Shown: positions 7,728 to 62,822 of the stretch, one piece after another
Layout of the letters: every line of letters starts with the position of its first letter
Position numbering within the stretch: position 1 is the stretch's first letter
Virus record (IMG/VR): IMGVR_UViG_3300037089_000506
Direction: 5' to 3' (one strand)
DNA length: 64,000 bases
DNA from: a virus
Made by a program: the position numbers and the translations under genes
Notes under the pieces: model-generated
Databases searched by the model: none
Told to the model about the DNA's origin: nothing
The model's input: only the letters and a program-made list of their open reading frames with translations

Positions 7728-8089
7728 TGAGCAATAATAACCTAAAAATAAATGAATATGAAACCTCACTTATGAATGAGATTTCAGCCATATCAACCTA
7801 TAAACTATTAACAGTTAGGAATGTATTGGAATCAGCATTTTTACGTCAGATTGAATCTTTACTTGCAGGAGAAGATATTCATATTCCTTTTATTGGTACC
7901 CTACATATAGACTATGAAGGTGATGATTATGTGTCGGGAGCTAAAGTAGCCAAGTTCACACCCCTCTTGACACCATCTAATTTATTCATTAGACTTGTAG
8001 GTGATGCTCATGATGGTAAGGGAGATATAATTTGGCAGATATCGGAAAAGAAGATAAGAGCAGCAGCGCAAAAAAAACTAGAGGAATAA
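7727..8089 (+). CDS. HU/IHF-like DNA-binding protein
   Basis: helical N-terminus then GEDIHIPFIGTL and FTP..PS, resembling the HU fold. Confidence 0.5.
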   Translation: MSNNNLKINEYETSLMNEISAISTYKLLTVRNVLESAFLRQIESLLAGEDIHIPFIGTLHIDYEGDDYVSGAKVAKFTPLLTPSNLFIRLVGDAHDGKGDIIWQISEKKIRAAAQKKLEE

Positions 8090-8096
8090 AAGGAAA

Positions 8097-8612
8097 ATGA
8101 GTAGTTATTTTCGTGAATTTACTAAAGAAGAGAGAATTAAATATAATGCTGCTTTAATGAAGATGGCAATAAAAAAGGAGAAGAAAGTGTTAGAGTATAC
8201 AGGGTTTGATTTGAAAGCACAGCGATATATTCGGATGGGAGGGCAATCCTTAATCTTTGTAAAGGCAATGCCTAATAACAATATATTAGGAGCAGTAAAT
8301 AAAGTTCAGCTACCTTCAGGTGAATATATGTATAATTTAGAACCAGGAGCGTATAAAGTAGAGTTCACCGATGCTCTTCCTTTCAAGTGGCAGGAGCCTG
8401 TATTTCATTATCTTCAGCAATATCGGCTAATTGATGCTGGTATGCATCTGACATTAAATTTCAATCCTTTCTGTGGTATTCTAAACGTGGAGTATAAAGC
8501 ATTGATTGAAGATGGTACTACGTTAGCTACATTAATGTGGGGGGCAATTCCTCATGAGTATGGTGATTTATTGGAGCATACAGCAGCCGTAAATAGGATT
8601 GTATATCCTTAG
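8097..8612 (+). CDS. degenerate dUTPase/dCTP deaminase-like protein
   Basis: GFDL and LEPGAYKVEF segments; other catalytic motifs not conserved. Confidence 0.35.
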   Translation: MSSYFREFTKEERIKYNAALMKMAIKKEKKVLEYTGFDLKAQRYIRMGGQSLIFVKAMPNNNILGAVNKVQLPSGEYMYNLEPGAYKVEFTDALPFKWQEPVFHYLQQYRLIDAGMHLTLNFNPFCGILNVEYKALIEDGTTLATLMWGAIPHEYGDLLEHTAAVNRIVYP

Positions 8613-9088
8613 GAGTAAATATGAAAGCGAATGATTTACCTACTACACCTACAAACATACAGAAACTCTCTAAAACATCATTGGAGAAGTATATCAAAGA
8701 ACATGAGTCTTCGCTAGGAAAAGAGAGAGAATTAATAAATAAGGCGGAAGAAGTATTGGAAAGAGTATTTTTAGATAAGAAGAGAAAAGCTAATATAGGC
8801 AAGTGCTATAAGTATAGTAATAGTTATAGCTCTGATGATACTTGGGATCAATATGATATAATAAAAGATTATATTGTTAGTGAAGGGGGTTGGGGTTATG
8901 GTCAATATAGAGTTCTCACTTTCTATGAGAATGAGAACGAGAGTTCTATAGAATTACATTTAAAGGATATAGGGATGTTTATGGAAATGGAAGATTATAA
9001 GTATCGTCCTATTACAGAAGAAGAGGCTCAGGTAGCATTAAATAGGGTTATGGAAAAATTGATTGGAACACCTTATGGAGGTTGAATT

Positions 9089-15824: not shown

Positions 15825-15833
15825 TTCTATTTT

Positions 15834-15909
15834 AGAGGGATAGCTTAAGGTTAGAGCAGGAAATCTATTAAGGTTTCTGTGTTGAAGGTATCGAATCCTT
15901 CTCCCTCTG
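15834..15909 (+). tRNA. atypical tRNA-like gene (Asn-like, loop CTATTAA)
   Basis: AGAGGGA/TCCCTCT acceptor, D arm, G73; irregular anticodon arm and 8-nt T loop. Confidence 0.45.
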
Positions 15910-15941
15910 TACTTTCTGAACCATCAACACACTAATTGTAT

Positions 15942-16661
15942 ATGAAACAGAAATACTACCTTTATCAAATAAAATGTCTAATAAATGGGAAAATTTATGT
16001 GGGGGTGCATAGAACCTATAATCTTGATGATGACTATATGGGTTCAGGTACAAAACTTTTAGGAGACATGACAGTTTTAGGAAAAAAGAATTTTGAGAGA
16101 ACCATTCTAAAGTTCTTTGATTCTGAGGAAGAGATGTATAAAGAAGAAGCCCTTATTGTAAATAAGGTGTTCATACAGAAAGAAGAAACCTATAATATTG
16201 TACCGGGAGGAAGAGGCGGTTCAACTCAGCTTACAGAATTGTCGAGAACAGACCAAGCCCGAAGTAAGAAAAGGGAAACATTAAGAAGAAGAAAGCATCA
16301 GCAAGGTACTAAAAATAGTAGGTATGGAACAATGTGGATTACTAATGGAATAGAAAACAAATCAGTTAGTAGAATTAATGATATTCCTGAAGGCTGGAAA
16401 AAGGGAAGAGCTATATCCTATAATAGAGAATACAGAAGAGGGGAAGCAGCAGTAAATTATGGAACAATGTGGGTTAACAATGGTAAGGAATCTAAACAAA
16501 TAGAAAGTAATAAACCCATACCTGAAGGGTGGAAAAGAGGATTACTAATATCTTTAGAAAAACTTAATTCACAAAAAATGTGGATTACAAATGGTATTGA
16601 AAGTAAATTTGTATATAAAGAATCTCTAATACCTAATAATTGGAGGAGGGGAAGAAAATAA
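15942..16661 (+). mobile_element. freestanding GIY-YIG homing endonuclease
   Basis: YYLYQIKCLINGKIYVGVH...YMGSG; C-terminal MWITNG...IPEGWKKGR repeats. Confidence 0.85.
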
Positions 16662-18746: not shown

Positions 18747-18860
18747 GCCATCGTGGTGGAAATGGAAATACACTGGGGACTTAACGAGGGTTTTCCTCTA
18801 GAGAATCTTGGTTAATCCCCCGCCTTTAATGGATTGAGGGTTCGACTCCCTCTGATGGCA
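18747..18860 (+). tRNA. tRNA-Leu(TAA) with 29-nt insert (18785-18813) between positions 36/37
   Basis: removing the insert gives GGGGA-CTTAAAA-TCCCC; type II body, A73. Confidence 0.85.
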
Positions 18861-18914
18861 GACAAATAAGACTGAGAGGAAATTATAAGAGATGTTTGGA
18901 ACTAAAATCAATTT

Positions 18915-18987
18915 GGCTTCCTAGCCCAAAGGCAGAGGCAATAGTTTCAAAAACTATAAAGTTTGAGTTCGAGTCTCAGGGAAGCTA
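18915..18987 (+). tRNA. tRNA with CAA anticodon but no long variable arm
   Basis: ATAGT-TTCAAAA-ACTAT arm, 5-nt variable loop, canonical T arm. Confidence 0.7.
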
Positions 18988-19365
18988 ATAGTGGCAAGAG
19001 CAATACCTGAAGCTCGTTATAAACCACAATATTATATATAAACAGAGGGTTAGAGGTAGCGAGAGTAGCTTGGTAGCTGCCTTGAAAAAGTATAAAATAG
19101 AGCTTGTTCATCAAAATTCTTAGTCTGCTATAAACAGGAGAGCAGTTGAAAAGTAGACGATGATGGATACATCAAAGCCATCTGAGGGTTAGAGTGTTAG
19201 CCCAAAAGCCTAGCAATAGGATACAATAGTATAACCTCCATCGTGATACGTGGGACTGCCTAGATGCTCGCTAGGAGGAAGGAACTATAAAATCGGGGAG
19301 TATCACGTAACTACCTTGAATGACAGCAACAGAGGTAGAAGGTGTACGAGAACCACCTTATTTTT

Positions 19366-20023: not shown

Positions 20024-20800
20024 ATGGAGGATAGTAGGAGTAGAGAAATGGGGAATATGTTACATCAGTTATTGGCCGTGGAGCAAGATTTAGTACAGCA
20101 GTCAAGGAACATTTTGGATGTGGAGTGCAAAAACACCTTCACTAAAAAGCAGGATTTGTTCGATGGTGTACTGAAGAATTACATTTCTTTCGATGCTGCT
20201 GGGGAACAAATTCCTCCAGAGAGTAAAGAAATTGTAACCACAGTAGCAGAGAAGATAGAGTATGCTCAGGGTGCGGTTATCAAGGCCATTGATGCCAGTA
20301 TCAGCAAGGAAGAGACGAATGCTTCTGGTACTGCTAAAGCCCCTCTCATGCTTGATGATGGTACTGACTTTGGTACCCTTTCTGCTACTTCTCTGATTGC
20401 GTTAGAGAAGTATCTTGTCAGGATTAGAGAAGTCTACAAGGACATTCCAACGGTAGACCCTGCTCGTTCATGGACTAAGGATTCTACACAGGCTAGAGCT
20501 ATCTATGTGGCTCCTGTAGATACTAAGTTCCGTTCTATCAAAAAGCTTGAGGTTATCACCAAAGTAGCTGCAACGGATAAGTTCCCTGCACAGACTGAGA
20601 TGGTACAGAACGAGGTCCAGGTAGGTAAGTACGAAACTACCTATACGTCAGGTAGGCTACAGCCTATAGAGAAGTCAAACCTTTTGTCAAAGATTGACAC
20701 TCTGATTCAAGCTGTAAAACAGGCTCGTCAAGCTGCTAATCAGGCACAGGTAATAAACGTCAAGTTAGGTGATAAAATATTCGCCTATATCAACAGTTAA
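20024..20800 (+). CDS. conserved hypothetical protein (LHQLLAVE...IPPES...SG.L...A...AN family)
   Basis: long ORF with biased codon usage; recalled resemblance to an actinobacterial hypothetical family, not verified. Confidence 0.6.
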   Translation: MEDSRSREMGNMLHQLLAVEQDLVQQSRNILDVECKNTFTKKQDLFDGVLKNYISFDAAGEQIPPESKEIVTTVAEKIEYAQGAVIKAIDASISKEETNASGTAKAPLMLDDGTDFGTLSATSLIALEKYLVRIREVYKDIPTVDPARSWTKDSTQARAIYVAPVDTKFRSIKKLEVITKVAATDKFPAQTEMVQNEVQVGKYETTYTSGRLQPIEKSNLLSKIDTLIQAVKQARQAANQAQVINVKLGDKIFAYINS

Positions 20801-21036
20801 ATAAATTGGAGTTACTTCCACCATGGCAGTATTTGTGCTAATCCATGAGGATATTTCGCAATAGCATAAGTATTGCTCTGGGGGGTAACTCCTTAAGAGC
20901 TAGTAGTAGTATCAGTAAATGGGCATACCCGTTAGGGCCGCCCAAGTAGAGTCTACGTAATTCCATCAGTTTATTGCTTGGCAGTTTTCTTAAAGTCTAT
21001 ATCGTGACAGAGGCATTGGCGACAATGATATAATTT

Positions 21037-21130
21037 AACGTAGGCATTGGTTCGAATCCAATCTTTCCCACTGTAAGCTTTATTAAAGAGCTTATTGTGG
21101 GAGAGGAGAGTCGGTGGCAGACTCGGCGTT
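21037..21130 (+). ncRNA. circularly permuted tRNA-like domain (YrlA-like) within a ~430 nt structured 3' region
   Basis: order AC3'-variable-T arm-acceptor3'-linker-acceptor5'-D arm-AC5', all stems paired. Confidence 0.7.
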
Positions 21131-21208
21131 TTTAGTAAAAATCATTGGGTGACTTCGGCCCGAAAGGATACTAGCAGCACTTACAATAGTCTTGAAAACT
21201 ATTAATCG

Positions 21209-21245
21209 GGCCGGGGGAAGGTAAGACCCCCGGTCCTTCTTTTTA
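21209..21245 (+). terminator. intrinsic terminator
   Basis: GGCCGGGGG/CCCCCGGTC hairpin plus T tract. Confidence 0.7.
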
Positions 21246-21258
21246 TTAGACTAATTAT

Positions 21259-21792
21259 ATGAGGTGTAATATGGACTATTTTACATTAAATAACGTGAAA
21301 GTATTTATGACATCAGCTCCGAATAATCTAGATATGGCAGAAATGCTAGGAATGGAAATGGAAGAAAATGAGATTAAATTAGCAATAGTATTATTAGGGG
21401 AAGAAGAATTAAAAAGATTATATGGAGATACTGTTTCTTTATTCAAAGTTTATTCTTCCTATGGAACCAAAGTATTATCCTATCCCATACCAGACTTTGA
21501 GGTTCCTGCTGATATAAGTAAATTTAATCAAGCTGTAGAAACAGTATGTGGTTATATAAAAAATAATAATGTGCTAGTACATTGCTGGGGTGGGCATGGT
21601 AGAACAGGAATTATGACAGTAGGAATTTGTGTGAGAACGGGGATGTCAGTAGAGAATGCGTATGAAATGATATCTAAAAAAAGAAAAATATTAGAAACAA
21701 ATGAACAATTTGAATTTTTATATGACTATGAAGAGTTTTGTATTAAATTAAGGAGTGAATATGATATTAGAGGAACAGCTACAAGTACTTAA
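21259..21792 (+). CDS. Cys-based (CX5R) tyrosine/dual-specificity phosphatase
   Basis: VLVHCWGGHGRTG. Confidence 0.85.
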   Translation: MRCNMDYFTLNNVKVFMTSAPNNLDMAEMLGMEMEENEIKLAIVLLGEEELKRLYGDTVSLFKVYSSYGTKVLSYPIPDFEVPADISKFNQAVETVCGYIKNNNVLVHCWGGHGRTGIMTVGICVRTGMSVENAYEMISKKRKILETNEQFEFLYDYEEFCIKLRSEYDIRGTATST

Positions 21793-22402
21793 TAATTATA
21801 TTGTCCAATTTATTCAGTATATGAAGGACAATAATAGATTTATTGTCTATGACTTGGAAACCAATGGATTTGTAGCTAACCCAATGCCTTCAGTATTATC
21901 AATATCAGCAGAATTATGTAAATTAAACTCCAATAAGACTATATCGGTTATTGATACTTATAATAGATTCTATTATTGTAAAGAGGAATATAACCCTAAA
22001 GCTACAAAAGTAAATGGACTCATTGATGATGAAATAAATAAAAGACGGATTGAAATTTGTGGTAGTTTTGATGATTACACTGATTATTTTTTAGATGACA
22101 TTGCTTCTTTTAAAACCTTTTGTGGTAATACCTCTGTATTCCTTGGATTTAATAATACTGGATTTGATAATATATTTCTTGAGGACTATATGATATTTCC
22201 TCACTCTCTGGATATAATGGTAGTTCAGGCTGCTCTAGAAAATGGTAAGTATAGGAAGCTGAAAGAAGTAGCCCCTGACTATGATGTTATTACTGATGAA
22301 GCAGAATTACATCAATCTTCTTATGATGTATACTTGACTAAAAGTATTTTTAGTAGTATGCTTAGTATGTCAACAGTGAGGATGATTGAACTAAAGGAGT
22401 AG
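21755..22402 (+). CDS. DEDDh 3'-5' exonuclease
   Basis: VYDLETNG, FNNTGFD, H.SSYDV. Confidence 0.8.
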   Translation: MNMILEEQLQVLNNYIVQFIQYMKDNNRFIVYDLETNGFVANPMPSVLSISAELCKLNSNKTISVIDTYNRFYYCKEEYNPKATKVNGLIDDEINKRRIEICGSFDDYTDYFLDDIASFKTFCGNTSVFLGFNNTGFDNIFLEDYMIFPHSLDIMVVQAALENGKYRKLKEVAPDYDVITDEAELHQSSYDVYLTKSIFSSMLSMSTVRMIELKE

Positions 22403-23734: not shown

Positions 23735-23736
23735 AT

Positions 23737-23838
23737 GGTTCTGTAGCTCAAATGGACAGAGCAACTGCCCTCTTTTTTACTTTAGCAGTAGAGTAATAAA
23801 GAAGCAGTAGGTAGCCCGTTCGAACCGGGCCAGGATCA
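23737..23838 (+). tRNA. tRNA-Arg(TCT) with 28-nt insert (23774-23801) at 36/37
   Basis: removal gives ACTGC-CCTCTAA-GCAGT; D loop nearly identical to the neighbouring Arg(ACG). Confidence 0.85.
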
Positions 23839-23840
23839 AA

Positions 23841-23940
23841 GGGACTAAGGCCGATTGGTTTAGGCACCGGCCTTTTTGAATACTTTTTAATAGAGTATTG
23901 AAAAAGCCGGTTGTGGTAGGTTCGATTCCTATTAGTCCCA
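23841..23940 (+). tRNA. tRNA-Lys(TTT) with 27-nt insert (23877-23903) at 36/37
   Basis: removal gives CCGGC-CTTTTAA-GCCGG; canonical D and T arms. Confidence 0.85.
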
Positions 23941-24345: not shown

Positions 24346-24416
24346 GGGGCTATAGCTCAGTTGTAGAGCGGTAGATCTGCATTCTACAGGTCGAGATGTC
24401 AAAGTCTCTAGCTCCA
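24346..24416 (+). tRNA. tRNA-Ala(TGC), variant T loop
   Basis: G3:U70, A73, GTAGA-TCTGCAT-TCTAC; T loop GTCAAA. Confidence 0.75.
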
Positions 24417-26178: not shown

Positions 26179-26598
26179 TTGTGTATGGAAAAGAAATGTT
26201 TTAGATGTAATGCTTATAAAGATATATCTTCCTTCTCAAAATCCAAAAAGACTCCTGATAAATTACATTCTTGGTGTAAGGAATGTGTAAAAGATTATGA
26301 TCATAATCGTCATATAAACAAAAGATACACTATTCTTTTACAAAAAAAAGAATATAGAGAAAGTAGAAGATTCTGGTTAAAGGAGTACAAAAAAGGAAAA
26401 GTATGTCTACGGTGTGGAGAAAGTCATCCGGCTTGTTTGGTATTTCATCATAAAGATGATACTATAAAAGAAAATAATATAGCAGATATGATAAGAGGAG
26501 GGTATTCACTTAAAAATATAAAAAAAGAAATTGATAAATGTGAGGTTTTATGTTCTAATTGTCATAATAAAGAGCATTTCTCTAAAGATTATTTATAG
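26179..26598 (+). mobile_element. HNH homing endonuclease
   Basis: CFRC..CKEC Zn finger; CLRC, FHH, CEVLCSNCH; stop codon overlaps tRNA-Pro. Confidence 0.8.
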
Positions 26599-29783: not shown

Positions 29784-29789
29784 TTTTTT

Positions 29790-29890
29790 GAGCCGATAGC
29801 TCCAACAGTAGAGCGGGTGGCTGTAAAATACTTTCTTACGAGAGTACTTTAGTAACCACCTTGTTGTAGGTTCGATTCCTGCTCGGCTCG
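29790..29890 (+). tRNA. tRNA-Asn(GTT) with 28-nt insert (29825-29852) at 35/36
   Basis: removal gives GGTGG-CTGTTAA-CCACC; G73, short variable loop. Confidence 0.8.
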
Positions 29891-29895
29891 TACTT

Positions 29896-30005: not shown

Positions 30006-30680
30006 ATGACAATAAGTTTTGTATATGCTCTGAGTAAAGAAGAAATTGAATATTTATTAAAGACAGAAGATTCATTACGAGAAGTTATGATTAAATGCGG
30101 TTTACCTACTAAAGGGGGTAATTACAGAACATTTAATAAAATGCTTATTAAAAAAGAGATTGATCCTATTTTAATAAGGGAAATTAAAGAAAAAGGAAGA
30201 AAATTAGTTTTTTCTAGAAGACAGACTCCTTTTGAAGAAATTTTTTGTGAGCATAGTAAAGTTAAAGGACATACTGTAAAAAAAGAATTAGCTAAAATAA
30301 TACCCTATAAATGTACTTGTGGAAATGAAGGGGAATGGCAAGGAAAGAAGCTTGTATTGCAGCTTGAGCATAAGAACGGGGTTTCTGATGATAATAAAAT
30401 AGAAAATTTATGTTTCTTGTGCCCTAATTGTCATAGTCAAACTGATACCTTTTGTGGAAAGAGTGATAACTTTAAGAAAGAGTCTGAAGCACGTAAACAA
30501 ATGAGAGAGCAGCTTAAAGAAGAAAAAAGACTTAGGCTCCTAAAAGAAAGGGTTCCTTTTTTGTTAACTATAAAAAAAGAATGGGGATGGGTAGAGAAGG
30601 TAGCAAAAGAATGGAAACTTTCTCATACAGAGGTACGAAGGTGGATAAATAAAAATTATCCAGAATTCATTGTCTCATAG
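30006..30680 (+). mobile_element. HNH homing endonuclease
   Basis: LQLEHKNG...NLCFLCPNCHSQT; stop overlaps tRNA-Gln. Confidence 0.85.
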
Positions 30681-35303: not shown

Positions 35304-35756
35304 ATGGAGAAAACCTTTAAAGGAAGTACCATGATTTACGGTTTTTTTGGTGAGTATAGCTTTTTAAGTAATTTCCATCTTTGTGAAATTCCTTTTGAAG
35401 GGCTCATTTACCCCTCTACCGAATATGCATTTCAGGCTGCTAAAACTTTAGACATTCAGGAACGAAAGTTTATTAGAACGGCTACTACTTGTGGTAAGGC
35501 TAAACGAGCAGGAATGACAGTAACATTACGTTCTGATTGGGAGGGAATAAAAATAGGTATTATGTATGATGTGAATATGACTAAATATGAAACATATCCT
35601 GAGCTTAAGGAGAAACTTCTAGCTACAGGTGAAGAAGAACTTGTAGAAGGCAATACGTGGGGAGATACCTTCTGGGGACAGGTAGATGGAATTGGCAAGA
35701 ATTATTTAGGTTTAGTTTTAATGCAGATTAGAAAGGAACTAAAAGAGGGCCTATAG
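35304..35756 (+). CDS. NADAR family protein
   Basis: FLSNF, STEYAFQAAK, DWE..K..IM, LVEGN.WGD.FWG, N.LG..LM.IR. Confidence 0.9.
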   Translation: MEKTFKGSTMIYGFFGEYSFLSNFHLCEIPFEGLIYPSTEYAFQAAKTLDIQERKFIRTATTCGKAKRAGMTVTLRSDWEGIKIGIMYDVNMTKYETYPELKEKLLATGEEELVEGNTWGDTFWGQVDGIGKNYLGLVLMQIRKELKEGL

Positions 35757-35817
35757 CTCAGTGGTAAAGCACCGTCCTCTAAACACGGGAACTAGGGTTC
35801 AATTCCCTATAGGCTCA
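35747..35817 (+). tRNA. amber suppressor-type tRNA (CTA)
   Basis: complete cloverleaf, loop CT-CTA-AA, C31:C39 mismatch. Confidence 0.75.
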
Positions 35818-48665: not shown

Positions 48666-49607
48666 ATGGCGTATTTCATTTATTGTATTGAGAACATAAT
48701 AAACCACAAAAAATATATAGGGCAAACATCTAAAACTATTGAAGAAAGATTTTGTGCCCATAAAAAATGCATGATTAGAAGAAAGAATCAAGTTTTGTAT
48801 GATGCTATGAATAAATATGGTATAGATAATTTTATTATTTACCAAGTGGAAGAGTGTAATAAAGAGAATTGTAGTGAAAAGGAACAGTATTGGATAAAAC
48901 AATATAACACCACTAATAGGGATTTTGGCTATAATATGACTGGTGGTGGAGAGAAATGTAATAAGCTAGAAGGATGGTCAGAAGAAAATAAAAAAGAACT
49001 GTATAAGAAACAAGCTATGAAAAGAAAGAAATCTGCTCAAAAGTTAGGGGTAGAACATTTTAATCAATTACCTGAGAATAGGGTAAAATTAGGTAAACAT
49101 CTGAAAGGAAAGACCTTTGAGGAAGTTTATGGAAAGGATCGTTCTGATGCTATCAAGCTTAAAATAAGTAGAACCTTAAAAAATATTGGGCATAAGCCCC
49201 CTATACACCATGGAGGGAATCATGGGTATCATCTTACTAATGAGGATAAGCAAAAAATGAGCGTTGCTCGTAGAGGAAAGACATATGAAGAGATATATGG
49301 AATCACAACTGCTAAGGTGATGAAGGATAAAAAAGTAGAAGTTAGCCTTAAAAGACAGTTCAATATCAAAAAAGAATCACTAAAGATAAGAATAAAGGTT
49401 CTAGATTATCTTAGTAATAATAAGGGAGTCTCTTACAAAGATATCCCTGTAGGGAAGGCTTCTATTCATAATATTAGAACACTTCTACGAGAAATTGGTA
49501 TTGACAATTATCAATTTTTTAAGTATAATTTCTTAGGAAATGATAAAGATTGGTGGGAATTCTTCCAATCTAAAATTTTATTTTTAAGGAGTAAATATGC
49601 AGAATAA
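48666..49607 (+). mobile_element. GIY-YIG homing endonuclease
   Basis: FIYCIENIINHKKYIGQT, GYNMTGGG; overlaps the RNA ligase start. Confidence 0.85.
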
Positions 49608-50871
49608 CACAGCAGTAGTGATGAAAATTAGTAGGATAGAACCTATAGTAGGAGCAGATAACATTGTCAAAGCTATACTTAGCCTAGAGGGAATAGAGCA
49701 GGGGCAGGTAGTAGTAGGTAAAAATGATTTTTATGAAGAAAATAATGTAGTATTTTTTGACTCCAATATGATATTAAACTTAGATTTTATTAAGGTAGTA
49801 GATAAGCAATCTCCTGATTATGGTAAGGAGGAGTTTAAGTCAATCGGGAGCTATTTATCCAAAGGTAATCGGGTAAAGGTAGTGAGACTCAAAAATACTA
49901 TTTCACTGGGGCTTGCAATAGGGGTAGGCAAGTTTAAGCCCTACAATGTTGATCTTGAGGAAGGGAATAGTTTTACTTCCCTTAATGGTGTTGATGTCTG
50001 CCACAAATATGTGCCTCCACAGAAGCAGATTCAGGTTCAAGGTAAGAAGGGAAGGAAAGTAAAGAAAACTTCTCGTCTAATCCCTGATCAGTTTCATTTC
50101 CATATTGATACTTCACAACTATTGCGAAATGTACATAAGTTTAATCCTAACCAGATAATCAGTATCAGTCGGAAAATACACGGAACTTCAGCTATCTGTG
50201 CTAATGCTCTAGTAAAGAGGAAATTAAACCTGCTGGAGAAAATAGCAAAGAGTATAGGAATAAAGATACAGGATACTGAGTACGATTATCTCTATGCATC
50301 CAGGTCAGTAGTCAAGAACGATGCTACTACTTCTGGCTTCTACAAGGAAGATATCTGGACTGAGGCTGGAAAAAAATATTTCCTAACTAAACTTCATGCT
50401 GGTGAAACTGTCTACTATGAGATAGTGGGATTCCTCCCTTCTGGCAATGCTATCCAGAAGGGATATCGTTATGGTTGTATACCTAATACGTATAAAGTTG
50501 CTGTCTATAGGATTACTGCTACTGGTACTGATGGTACTGTGTATGAGTATTCATGGCAAGCAATGAAACAGCGCTGCGAAGAACTTCAGGTGCCTATGGT
50601 AGAGGAATTCTACTATGGCAAGGCTTCCGATTTCCCTCTATACTCCAATCCTACCAATCCTGAGTATTGGGTTAGCTATTTTATTAATGAATTGAAGGCT
50701 AATTATTTGGAAAAAAAGGCCGAAGATTGCGATGGTAACCCTGATGAGGGTATCGTTATCAGGATCGAGGGTATGAACATCGAGGCTTACAAGCTGAAGT
50801 CTGAAGCATTCCTCTTGAAGGAGTCAAAGGCACATGAAGAAGAGGTTATCGATATAGAAGAACAGGCATAA
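49597..50871 (+). CDS. ATP-dependent RNA ligase (DRB0094/Rnl2-like)
   Basis: N-terminal OB-like domain, KIHGTS (motif I), YEIVG, EGIVIR, YKLKS. Confidence 0.85.
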   Translation: MQNNTAVVMKISRIEPIVGADNIVKAILSLEGIEQGQVVVGKNDFYEENNVVFFDSNMILNLDFIKVVDKQSPDYGKEEFKSIGSYLSKGNRVKVVRLKNTISLGLAIGVGKFKPYNVDLEEGNSFTSLNGVDVCHKYVPPQKQIQVQGKKGRKVKKTSRLIPDQFHFHIDTSQLLRNVHKFNPNQIISISRKIHGTSAICANALVKRKLNLLEKIAKSIGIKIQDTEYDYLYASRSVVKNDATTSGFYKEDIWTEAGKKYFLTKLHAGETVYYEIVGFLPSGNAIQKGYRYGCIPNTYKVAVYRITATGTDGTVYEYSWQAMKQRCEELQVPMVEEFYYGKASDFPLYSNPTNPEYWVSYFINELKANYLEKKAEDCDGNPDEGIVIRIEGMNIEAYKLKSEAFLLKESKAHEEEVIDIEEQA

Positions 50872-60945: not shown

Positions 60946-61689
60946 ATGAACAATAAGTCATATAAGTTAGGGAAAACCTGTTCTATTTGTGGAAAGCAAA
61001 TAATAGATAGTAATAAAGGTGGAAAGTGTTCTCTCCATAGAGATCGAACAGGAAAAAATAATCCTTTCTATGGTAAGCATCATGATAAGAAAACTATTGA
61101 AGCTACAAAAATAAAATTAAAAGAAATATCTAAAGATTTATGGAAAGATAAGGGGTATAGGGAAAAAGTAATAAAAGCTATCTCTAAACCTCGAAGAGAG
61201 GGTTTTAAAAAAGAGCAAAGTGAAAGAATAACTCAATGGTATAGAGATAACCCAGAGCAGTTAGATATAAGAAGAGAGGCTATGAAAGAATCTTGGAAGT
61301 CTGGGAGTATTTCCTATAATGAGCATTCTTCTTACAATAGCAGTAAAATAGAAAAATCTCTATTATATGATATACAACAATTTTGTTCAGAAGCACAAGA
61401 ACACTATACTATTAAAACTACTGAAAAATGGTATTTACCAGATATCTACATTGAAAGTAAAAAAATAATAATAGAATTATATGGTGAATATTGGCACGCT
61501 CACTCTGATCGTTACCAAGAAGAAGATGTTGTTCACCATAATGTAAAGGCTAAAGATATTTGGAGCAAAGATAAAATAAGAGAAAAGGTCTTGACAGAAC
61601 TAGGGTATACTGTTATTATTATATGGAGTGAGAAATATAAAAAGGATAAAGAAAATACTTTGTCCTATATTAGGAGTTTATTATGTTAG
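60946..61689 (+). mobile_element. NUMOD3 + Vsr/DUF559-like homing endonuclease
   Basis: NPFYGKHH, YLPDIYI...IELYGEYWH; overlaps the rtcB start. Confidence 0.75.
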
Positions 61690-62822
61690 AAATTCGTGGA
61701 AAATACAATTCTGCTATCATTTATAATGATAATGTGGAACAGTCAGCTTTATCTCAAATTTATGCTCTTCTAAATAATGAGGTTTCTATTGGAAGTAAAA
61801 TTCGTATTATGCCAGATGTTCATGCAGGAGCAGGGTGTGTCATAGGGTATACTGCAACTCTTACAAATAAAATAATAGTAAATTTAATAGGTGTTGATAT
61901 TGGGTGTGGAATCACTTCTATATGTATAGGAAAAAAGGATATAGATTTCCAGAAACTTGATGACATCATTCATACCTATGTACCTTCAGGTCACAATGTA
62001 CATACTTCTCAATCTGGTGGTGAATGGATTCAAAAAGATTTTAAGAAATCTTCCATCTATGATGATGTCAGAAAAATATGTGAGAAGCAAGATCAGGATT
62101 TTAATCGAGTTATGGCTTCACTAGGATCGAGTGGGGGAGGCAACCATTTTTGTGAGGTAGATAAGGATCAAGATGGCCTACTCTGGCTTACTGTTCATTC
62201 AGGCTCTCGTAACTTTGGTTTGAAGATTGCCAATTACTGGCAATCTATAGCGAAGGCTAAAACTCATGGTACTGAAGGTACCATGAATGGGTTGGAGTAT
62301 TTAAAGGATGAGGACTATCAAGGATACTTGACAGATATGATGATAGCTCAAATTTATGCTCATAAGAATCGAGAGTATATATTACAGCAGATTCAAGAGA
62401 AGATGGATTTAGTCTATGGTGATGGTCGTTCTGTTGAGTCTGTCCATAACTATATTGATCTTGACCATGAAATTATCCGTAAGGGAGCAATATCAGCTAT
62501 GCTAAATGAGCCTGTGATTATTCCTTGGAATATGCGAGATGGATTGATTATAGGCACGGGAAAGGGCAATCCAGACTGGAATTTCAGTGCTCCTCATGGT
62601 GCTGGTCGTATCATGGGTAGGCAGGTAGCAAAGAAATCATTACAATTATCTGACTTTGAGGATTCAATGAAGGGAATATGGACTTCATGCGTTTCTAAGG
62701 ATACTATTGATGAATCCCCAATGGCTTATAAGCCTTATGAGGAAATACAGGATTTGATAGGGGATACTGTAGATATAAAGTATACTTTAAAGCCTGTATA
62801 TAGCTTCAAGGCGAATGAATAA
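61683..62822 (+). CDS. rtcB: RtcB RNA ligase
   Basis: MPDVHAG, GVDIGCG, GGGNHF, HSGSR, HNY, PHGAGR, DESPMAYK. Confidence 0.95.
   Translation: MLEIRGKYNSAIIYNDNVEQSALSQIYALLNNEVSIGSKIRIMPDVHAGAGCVIGYTATLTNKIIVNLIGVDIGCGITSICIGKKDIDFQKLDDIIHTYVPSGHNVHTSQSGGEWIQKDFKKSSIYDDVRKICEKQDQDFNRVMASLGSSGGGNHFCEVDKDQDGLLWLTVHSGSRNFGLKIANYWQSIAKAKTHGTEGTMNGLEYLKDEDYQGYLTDMMIAQIYAHKNREYILQQIQEKMDLVYGDGRSVESVHNYIDLDHEIIRKGAISAMLNEPVIIPWNMRDGLIIGTGKGNPDWNFSAPHGAGRIMGRQVAKKSLQLSDFEDSMKGIWTSCVSKDTIDESPMAYKPYEEIQDLIGDTVDIKYTLKPVYSFKANE

Follow-up and report, generated by a model that had tools for sequence, protein, structure and literature searches.

A 29-nt hairpin insert in a phage tRNA-Leu(UAA) gene points to a possible, undescribed protein-driven tRNA splicing in phages

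The locus analysed here raises the question how a phage tRNA gene that is interrupted by a 29-nt hairpin in its anticodon loop could give rise to a tRNA able to decode. The DNA belongs to a 109.5-kb IMG/VR virus record, classed as provirus and 62 % complete; the window, the stretch of 64,000 nt that was analysed as a part of it, has a G+C content of 33 % and carries a tRNA array of more than 20 genes. On the plus strand, positions 18747-18860 are a real class II tRNA-Leu(UAA) gene, 114 nt long with and 85 nt without the insert, recognized by the Rfam tRNA model RF00005 (32.9 bits, gathering score 29), by ARAGORN with the option -i and by its fold. Its acceptor stem has 7 bp, the discriminator is A (A73), the variable arm is long and the T arm normal. 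ARAGORN in default mode did not report 18747-18860; in intron mode it placed there a tRNA with a 29-nt insert and gave three further insert-bearing tRNAs at 23736-23839, 23841-23940 and 29789-29891. Its label for the Leu gene, Lys(ttt), was rejected, the program having chosen a wrong intron boundary. The anticodon UAA comes to lie in a 7-nt loop only once 18785-18813 are taken out.

The anticodon stem (18775-18779 with 18816-18820) encloses a loop of 36 nt, composed of 7 nt and the 29-nt insert. Six different excisions would bring this loop down to 7 nt, and the boundary was chosen by comparison with a homologue and not by folding. A contig of a close relative holds the orthologous Leu gene without insert (L047:874-957), with a loop CUUAAAA, the same anticodon stem and a homologous 5' flank; the contig flanks align, and its DUF7873 protein has 85 % identity to that of the window. 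Only the removal of 18785-18813, between A36 and A37, restores the loop CUUAAAA. On the plus strand, the 5' exon covers 18747-18784 and ends with C32 U33 U34 A35 A36, the hairpin, a predicted mini-intron, covers 18785-18813, and the 3' exon covers 18814-18860 with A37 and A38 as first bases. Since the L047 orthologue lacks it, the Leu insert is a discrete element, and the gene around it is conserved. A transposon-like origin with target-site duplication was rejected: removal of the TTAA-flanked unit would leave a loop of 5 nt.

The 29 nt form a stem of 11 pairs, C1-G27 through C11-G17, with a 5-nt loop, a G.G at pair 2, three G.U or U.G wobbles and a 3' overhang of UU. Pairs 8 to 11 are U-A, U.G, U-A and C-G; the 5' strand of pairs 9 and 10 (U, U) is located at 18793-18794 on the plus strand, and the partners (A, G) at 18802-18803 give U.G and U-A. 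The UU overhang pairs with A35-A36, U33-A38 and U34-A37 extend the helix to the anticodon stem, and C32 is bulged in the pre-tRNA, three pairs below the proposed 3' cut site. In the predicted fold, insert hairpin and anticodon stem are stacked into a helix of about 20 bp. Folding of the pre-tRNA, suggested in an earlier note on this DNA, gave as minimum free energy structure (RNAfold) a cloverleaf with an extended arm of 20 bp at -45.8 kcal/mol (z = -4.1), and none of 200 shuffled sequences was as stable. The note had ascribed one geometry to all four inserts of the window: 11 bp with a G.G at pair 2, the pairs U-A, U.G and U-A at 8-10 and a 2-nt 3' overhang. The fold of the Leu insert has all of these features, but the pair-2 G.G is common only to the Lys insert and the Leu orthologues; the non-pairs lie elsewhere in the Arg insert (U.U at pair 3) and the Asn insert (A.C at pair 4). 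The largely different sequence of the Leu insert, also claimed there, was confirmed by an arm identity of 33-50 % to the other three inserts of the window.

These three are likewise located on the plus strand. The tRNA-Arg(UCU) gene (23737-23839) has a 28-nt insert at 23774-23801 and the tRNA-Lys(UUU) gene (23841-23940; Rfam 47.9 bits) a 27-nt insert at 23877-23903, both between positions 36 and 37 of the tRNA, and the tRNA-Asn(GUU) gene (29790-29890; Rfam 46.4 bits; G73) has a 28-nt insert at 29825-29852 between positions 35 and 36. The spliced loops of Arg and Lys equal those of the intron-less genes Arg(tct) and Lys(ttt) of L007, and the spliced loop of Asn equals the loop of the intron-less Asn(gtt) of L009. 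L007 and L008 are syntenic with the window, with a DUF7873 protein 85 % identical. Their Leu(UAA) gene has a 28-nt insert at the site used in the window gene, and their Glu(UUC) gene also has a 28-nt insert, with the Glu copy of the window being free of one; conversely, their Arg(UCU) and Lys(UUU) genes have no insert whereas the window copies do. L027 and L038, with DNA about 90 % identical to the window, have the same Leu insert as the window, and their Leu gene has A-U for G-C in the anticodon stem, a compensatory change. A pattern scan of metagenomes revealed Leu(UAA) genes with inserts on L035 and L037, contigs otherwise unrelated to the window; these two and L027 were retrieved by a pattern with UUU and AGA fixed. 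Alignment with related Leu-UAA genes, as the note had proposed, thus provides three other lineages (L007/L008, L035 and L037) with an insert at the corresponding position. The L037 insert and the Lys insert of the window have an identical core, so that one cassette family serves different tRNAs. The Leu gene of L035 adjoins genes of a permease and a STAS-domain protein, i.e., transporter genes, and this contig may be cellular, bacterial DNA.

Several observations on the tRNA array and its surroundings were made besides. In place of the near-universal U33, C33 is present in the Arg(UCU) genes of window (23769-23773) and L007 (14871-14944), and apparently also in an Ala(UGC)-like tRNA at 24346-24416 that Rfam scores with 50.5 bits and ARAGORN missed. 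A tRNA of the amber-suppressor type with the anticodon CUA lies at 35747-35817 and an odd tRNA with the anticodon AUU at 15833-15910; the long ORFs of the window read normally under table 11. The tRNA-Leu(CAA) gene with its flanks (18880-19183, about 300 bp) is absent from the 90 %-identical L027 and L038. A NADAR-domain protein (E 3e-24) is encoded within the array at 35304-35756. The region 20024-22402 encodes DUF7873, a DSP/PTP-SAK phosphatase and an RNase_T-type exonuclease, a trio conserved beside the tRNA array in L007. Relatives of DUF7873 with about 50 % identity occur in Cytophagales genomes, which hints at a host among the Bacteroidota.

Eight distinct inserts, four representing the Leu lineages and one each from Lys, Arg and Asn of the window and Glu of the relative, were compared after they had been anchored by script at the splice sites derived from homologues, as MAFFT misaligned the Asn and Glu arms. 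The geometry is kept throughout. Insert lengths are 27-29 nt, the loops have 3-5 nt and are tetraloops in six cases, and every stem has 11 bp with at most two non-pairs, the 11th pair of Lys being U.U. All eight end in a 3' overhang of 2 nt that can pair with the last two exon bases before the 5' splice site, and the last two intron bases covary with the anticodon bases 35-36. The U.G at pair 9 and the U-A at pair 10 are present in eight of eight inserts, the U-A at pair 8 and the C-G at pair 7 in seven; the conservation of pairs 8-10 rests on the six inserts not chosen by pattern, L035 and L037 not being counted. Pairs 1-7 vary freely across inserts yet stay paired. Among the Leu(UAA) orthologues of L007/L008, L035 and L037, pairs 3-7 are altered with the pairing kept, and the U.G at pair 9 and the U-A at pair 10 are constant. 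Covariation was quantified for seven arms that MAFFT aligned in register (Leu, Lys, Arg): 93.2 % of the cells were paired, both sides had changed in 12 of 19 pairs, none of 500 shuffles matched this, and slid partners reached 35-56 %. All eight pre-tRNAs fold as cloverleaf with extended arm (z = -4.1 to -5.6). The Asn insert is placed one base further 5' in the tRNA, at 35/36, and has the same hairpin and stagger; because its geometry is identical in spite of the shift, the cuts would be measured from the hairpin rather than from the tRNA body. Intron-less homologues carry the predicted 7-nt loops for all five tRNA species (Leu in L047, Arg and Lys in L007, Asn in L009, Glu in the window copy). 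On this comparative evidence the insert helix is under selection. The view of the earlier note that structure conserved in spite of sequence divergence reflects selection on a processing signal is hence supported, by the orthologues, by the covariation and by the presence and absence of inserts.

Searches for further members of the family were of limited yield. In viral contigs, a pattern of hairpin core and T loop gave five chance matches and no tRNA, no tRNA was among the 80 matches listed for a relaxed Leu pattern, and none was among the 120 matches listed for a Lys/Leu core pattern. A Leu-specific pattern, run on 185,579 prokaryote species with one genome per species, gave seven chance matches, of which none was a tRNA. 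The covariance model R1 detected no additional members in 12 related virus records; the model scores the Asn and Glu members poorly (13-16 bits). A hairpin of L017 (10940-11030) reached 26.8 bits with this model. It has 13 bp with a G.G mismatch and a CUUU/AGAG top, and it joins an apparent tRNA 3' half (T arm and acceptor strand) to a 5' half (acceptor strand and D arm), which could be a permuted or rearranged tRNA gene. Inserts of other kinds were observed as well: tRNAs with a perfect 32-nt hairpin in the anticodon loop, of a geometry unlike the mini-intron family, in L016:8330-8434 and L022:11406-11510, and three adjacent tRNA-like genes of 108-119 nt with inserts of 38-46 nt in or near the anticodon loop in L020:14731-15146 (also in L021), the L020 record being a complete 189-kb phage.

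The invariant features of the inserts were compared with the substrate rules of RNase III. The E. coli enzyme cuts both strands of a helix, leaves 2-nt 3' overhangs and produces 5'-phosphate and 3'-hydroxyl ends; the shortest reactive helix measures 11 bp from the cut to the tetraloop, and the stem-loop product of the substrate R1.1 has 28 nt (PMC1540722, PMC8708148). One set of proximal and distal box is enough to specify a site, and the distal box is a positive determinant at pairs 10 and 9, canonically UA/UG with a stringent U.G, that may vary between species (PMC1540722, PMC8708148). In E. coli, a C-G or G-C pair beside the scissile bond is a catalytic antideterminant, and at box position 2 a binding antideterminant. 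All eight inserts have the required helix length with their stems of 11 bp, in an arm of about 20 bp together with the anticodon stem. A distal box of U-A/U.G, two pairs below the loop, is likewise present in all eight by the E. coli rules, from which those of the host may differ. The 2-nt 3' stagger, in geometric terms, was found in five tRNA species with boundaries derived from homologues and not from the fold. In the proximal box, pairs 1-4 of the Lys, Arg, Asn and Glu inserts consist of A/U pairs or mismatches only; the Leu inserts have a C-G at pair 1, next to the predicted 5' scissile bond, and that of L007 also a G-C at pair 3, which are antideterminants in E. coli. A purine-purine mismatch next to the C-G of pair 1 is conserved in all four Leu lineages, and we infer that it may offset the antideterminant. 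As far as sequences and predicted folds go, the invariant features of the inserts are the published recognition features of a minimal E. coli RNase III substrate.

We see the chances as about evenly balanced that the 29-nt insert is a protein-spliced mini-intron, a cassette excised by RNase III and resealed by the ATP-dependent ligase of the phage. Cleavage of the RNA as such, the nuclease responsible and the ligase that seals the ends are what we infer from the comparison. In the proposed sequence of events, the hairpin would stack on the anticodon stem of the pre-tRNA and the anticodon would be buried in the helix of about 20 bp. The host RNase III would recognize the cassette by the 11 bp from cut to loop and the distal box of U-A/U.G at pairs 10/9, and would cut each strand once, behind A36 and behind the final base of the intron, at a 3' stagger of 2 nt, thereby freeing a 29-nt hairpin. 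The tRNA halves, now bearing a 3'-OH and a 5'-phosphate at the break, would stay together via acceptor and anticodon stems, and the phage ligase would seal the anticodon loop to yield tRNA-Leu(UAA). No RNase III gene and no dsRNA-binding domain was found in the phage record (109 kb, 62 % complete), thus the nuclease would have to be that of the host.

Two RNA ligase genes are located on the plus strand of the window. The first (49597-50871) encodes an ATP-dependent RNA ligase with an N-terminal OB fold and an Rnl2-type nucleotidyltransferase domain, a distant relative of DraRnl. It matches Pfam PF21189 and PF09414 and the RNA ligase phrog_968 (E 4.6e-49), a match to TIGR02306 (E 6e-9) is below the family cut-off, and no relative was found by sequence in the PDB. 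The family is best known for sealing duplex nicks, not open anticodon loops. The second gene (61683-62822) encodes an RtcB RNA ligase (PF01139, E 1e-58; 45-47 % identity to RtcB of Bacillus phages). ATP-dependent ligases need 3'-OH and 5'-phosphate ends, while RtcB needs a 3'-phosphate or cyclic phosphate and a 5'-OH (PMC7824862). RNase III ends would therefore suit the ATP-dependent ligase without a healing step, and this enzyme is our candidate for sealing 3'-OH/5'-phosphate ends, with RtcB as the alternative. The lack of an AAA_33-type polynucleotide kinase in the 109-kb record suits ends that already bear a 5'-phosphate. Ligases of the 49597-50871 type are absent from 12 related records that also lack inserts, and Lak genomes encode a homologue with 38 % identity over 63 % of the protein; a link of ligase and inserts on these grounds is only suggestive. 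In G002, a 42 %-complete fragment, inserts are present and the ligase was not seen. The two cultured phages with the closest ligase homologues have long tRNA genes with other insert kinds, which do not belong to the hairpin mini-intron family. If L035 is bacterial, such a ligase may be absent there, which counts against its general involvement.

The presence of RtcB would fit a different nuclease, and in this alternative the insert is a true intron cut by another endonuclease, perhaps phage-encoded, with 2',3'-cyclic phosphate and 5'-OH ends joined by the RtcB of the phage. We rate this as unlikely. The enzyme is encoded in the record and is named as the tRNA-splicing ligase of archaea and animals in PMC10630183, yet RtcB is also common in tRNA-rich phages without inserts; 688 phage records hold it, including G001 and G005. 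A DSP/PTP-SAK phosphatase and a metallophosphoesterase, both of the end-healing type, are encoded beside the tRNA array, and the many array ORFs of no known family leave room for a nuclease. EndA (PF01974) is absent from the 109-kb record (62 % complete) at E <= 1, and a bulge-helix-bulge is not formed by the inserts; we know of no metal-independent RNase that cleaves a helix on its two strands at a 3' offset of 2 nt, nor of EndA in bacteria. The ORF overlapping the RtcB start was rejected as splicing partner, as it is homing-endonuclease-like and not conserved beside the RtcB gene of L010. A dedicated protein might just as well use the invariant motif, 8-10 bp from the cuts, as a handle, but the exact fall of the conserved features on the RNase III determinants would then be left as a coincidence.

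A further alternative, which we consider improbable to a still greater degree, supposes that the insert is retained and the product is a tRNA-shaped RNA that does not decode, i.e., an RNA that diverts anticodon nucleases as a decoy, one with a regulatory role, or merely the transcript of a gene made resistant to homing endonucleases. Predicted folds mask the anticodon fully in every member, the array is rich in homing-endonuclease genes, and members of one HNH family are neighbours of intron-bearing tRNAs in two contexts that are unrelated and also occur within a large tRNA-Leu(UAA) insert, all of which this alternative would accommodate. Against it, excision restores a canonical 7-nt loop in five tRNA species, identical to the loops of intron-less homologues; A37 and A38 are always present in the restored loops, and U33 in all except Arg. 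The exon cloverleaf is kept by compensatory change, as in the anticodon stem of L027 (G-C to A-U), and a mere DNA spacer needs neither a covarying RNA helix nor an invariant U.G. The codon usage is also at variance with a non-decoding product. The four insert-bearing genes are the only ones of the record for Lys(UUU), Leu(UAA), Arg(UCU) and Asn(GUU) and so the sole ones for the codons it uses most for these four amino acids: AAA ranks first among all codons and AAU fifth, with UUA leading for Leu and AGA for Arg. It may be argued from this that the insert-bearing tRNAs are needed by the phage.

Very improbable is a mimicry of a tRNA minihelix by the hairpin, in which RNase P would cut the 5' side and RNase Z the 3' side: both enzymes are universal in bacteria and their 3'-OH/5'-phosphate ends could be joined by the ATP-dependent phage ligase, but the minihelices used as substrates combine 12 bp with a T loop of 7 nt and a single discriminator nucleotide, whereas the inserts have 11 bp, loops of 3-5 nt, a 2-nt overhang and no T-loop motif, and the U-A/U.G pairs would stay unexplained. 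Known intron classes were rejected as well. For a group I intron, 29 nt are too small for the ribozyme core, and RF00028 had no match in the window, although this model did detect the group I intron of L009 described below; a bulge-helix-bulge intron disagrees with a helix continuous over both splice sites, whose irregularities are only the C32 bulge and the G.G of pair 2; and the Lak type disagrees with plain hairpins of 27-29 nt that diverge between lineages.

The patchy distribution among orthologues and the core shared by Leu and Lys inserts point to gain, loss or transfer of inserts. A free-standing HNH endonuclease gene (30006-30680, plus strand, weak Pfam HNH match) lies beside the intron-bearing tRNA-Asn. 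It is homologous (E 1e-9) to an HNH ORF that directly adjoins the insert-bearing tRNA-Leu gene on L035, and also to an HNH ORF within a 679-nt tRNA-Leu(UAA) insert of L064. A link of the inserts, in spread or retention, to endonucleases targeting tRNA genes is possible on the basis of this homology. The L064 gene (2310-3072, minus strand) is split at 34/35, its HNH ORF is antisense, and Rfam gave no group I match for the 679-nt insert. A genuine group I intron was observed in the tRNA-Thr(UGU) gene of L009 (7649-7951; RF00028, 70.4 bits), with a DUF559-type endonuclease ORF downstream (8001-8882). The window itself has five homing-endonuclease-like genes (15936-16661, 26179-26598, 30006-30680, 48666-49607 and 60946-61689), two of the GIY-YIG type, two HNH and one with I-TevI zinc finger/NUMOD3/DUF559 domains, scattered in the tRNA array and beside both RNA ligase genes.

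In a wider and tentative reading, which we hold at somewhat below even, phages and perhaps some bacteria would have a third, protein-only route of tRNA splicing that combines a portable 28-nt RNase III cassette with a phage ligase. The cassette would then fit any anticodon loop, provided that its last two bases match bases 35-36. As for its purpose, it could mask anticodons from host anticodon nucleases until maturation or break up the DNA targets of homing endonucleases. Full-text word searches of the literature did not bring up any account of short hairpin introns in tRNAs of bacteria or phages. To our knowledge, tRNA-gene introns of bacteria and their viruses are thought to be self-splicing only, and enzymatic tRNA splicing is taken as a hallmark of archaea and eukaryotes. 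The insert, too small for self-splicing and resembling a minimal RNase III substrate, points to an undescribed protein-driven tRNA splicing in phages. If true, this would be a new splicing pathway, in which a hairpin intron is removed by the ubiquitous RNase III and a phage ligase reseals the tRNA, it would account for tRNA introns of Lak phages called enigmatic, and phage RNA ligases read only as repair enzymes would gain a housekeeping role in splicing. It would also account for the failure of standard tRNA finders to report key phage tRNAs: none of the four insert-bearing genes was given by ARAGORN in default mode, so that an annotation would show the phage without tRNAs for its commonest codons.

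Among known systems, the intervening sequences of 23S rRNA (helices 25 and 45 in Salmonella, Leptospira and others) are excised by RNase III. They resemble the tRNA inserts as extended stem-loops that occur sporadically in a gene of a stable RNA, and in the proposed removal by a host nuclease for double-stranded RNA; however, the 23S rRNA fragments function unligated, whereas a tRNA cut in the anticodon loop cannot decode unless it is resealed. Phage T4 reportedly reseals tRNA-Lys cut by PrrC with Pnkp and Rnl1. A phage RNA ligase would thus reseal an anticodon-loop break in both cases, but the repair in T4 concerns damage by a host defence and needs end healing, while in our proposal the break belongs to a programmed maturation and the ends are already ligatable. 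The bulge-helix-bulge introns of archaea and eukaryotes, processed by EndA/Sen together with RtcB or Trl1 (PMC4090602), are also short, adjacent to the anticodon and paired with it, with the same polarity of the stagger, and an RtcB ligase is present here too. The phage inserts differ in the lack of 3-nt bulges and of a 4-bp central helix, and in their position at 36/37 (Asn 35/36) instead of 37/38. The group I introns of bacterial and phage tRNA genes reside classically in tRNA-Leu(UAA) (PMC3984707), the same gene and the same loop, yet at 34/35 and not 36/37, and with a core of about 200 nt or more. The tRNA introns of the Lak megaphages, called enigmatic by Devoto et al. 2019 (PMC6784885), likewise are no ribozymes, lie in anticodon loops of phage tRNAs and are patchy among relatives. 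Table S6 of that study gives one of 93 nt, another is said to be tRNA-like, they are identical across cohorts, and a hairpin or RNase III geometry is not described (PMC6784885). The closest likeness is to the minimal RNase III substrates T7 R1.1 and uR1.1 (Pertzev & Nicholson 2006, PMC1540722), which share with the inserts the 11 bp, the U-A/U.G at pairs 10/9, the stagger, the product of about 28 nt and the single self-contained box set that specifies the site. Leu inserts differ from R1.1 in the C-G beside the scissile bond, disfavoured in E. coli. R1.1 separates cistrons of an mRNA, and the pieces that result from its cleavage are never joined again, whereas the insert lies in an anticodon loop and its flanks need ligation.
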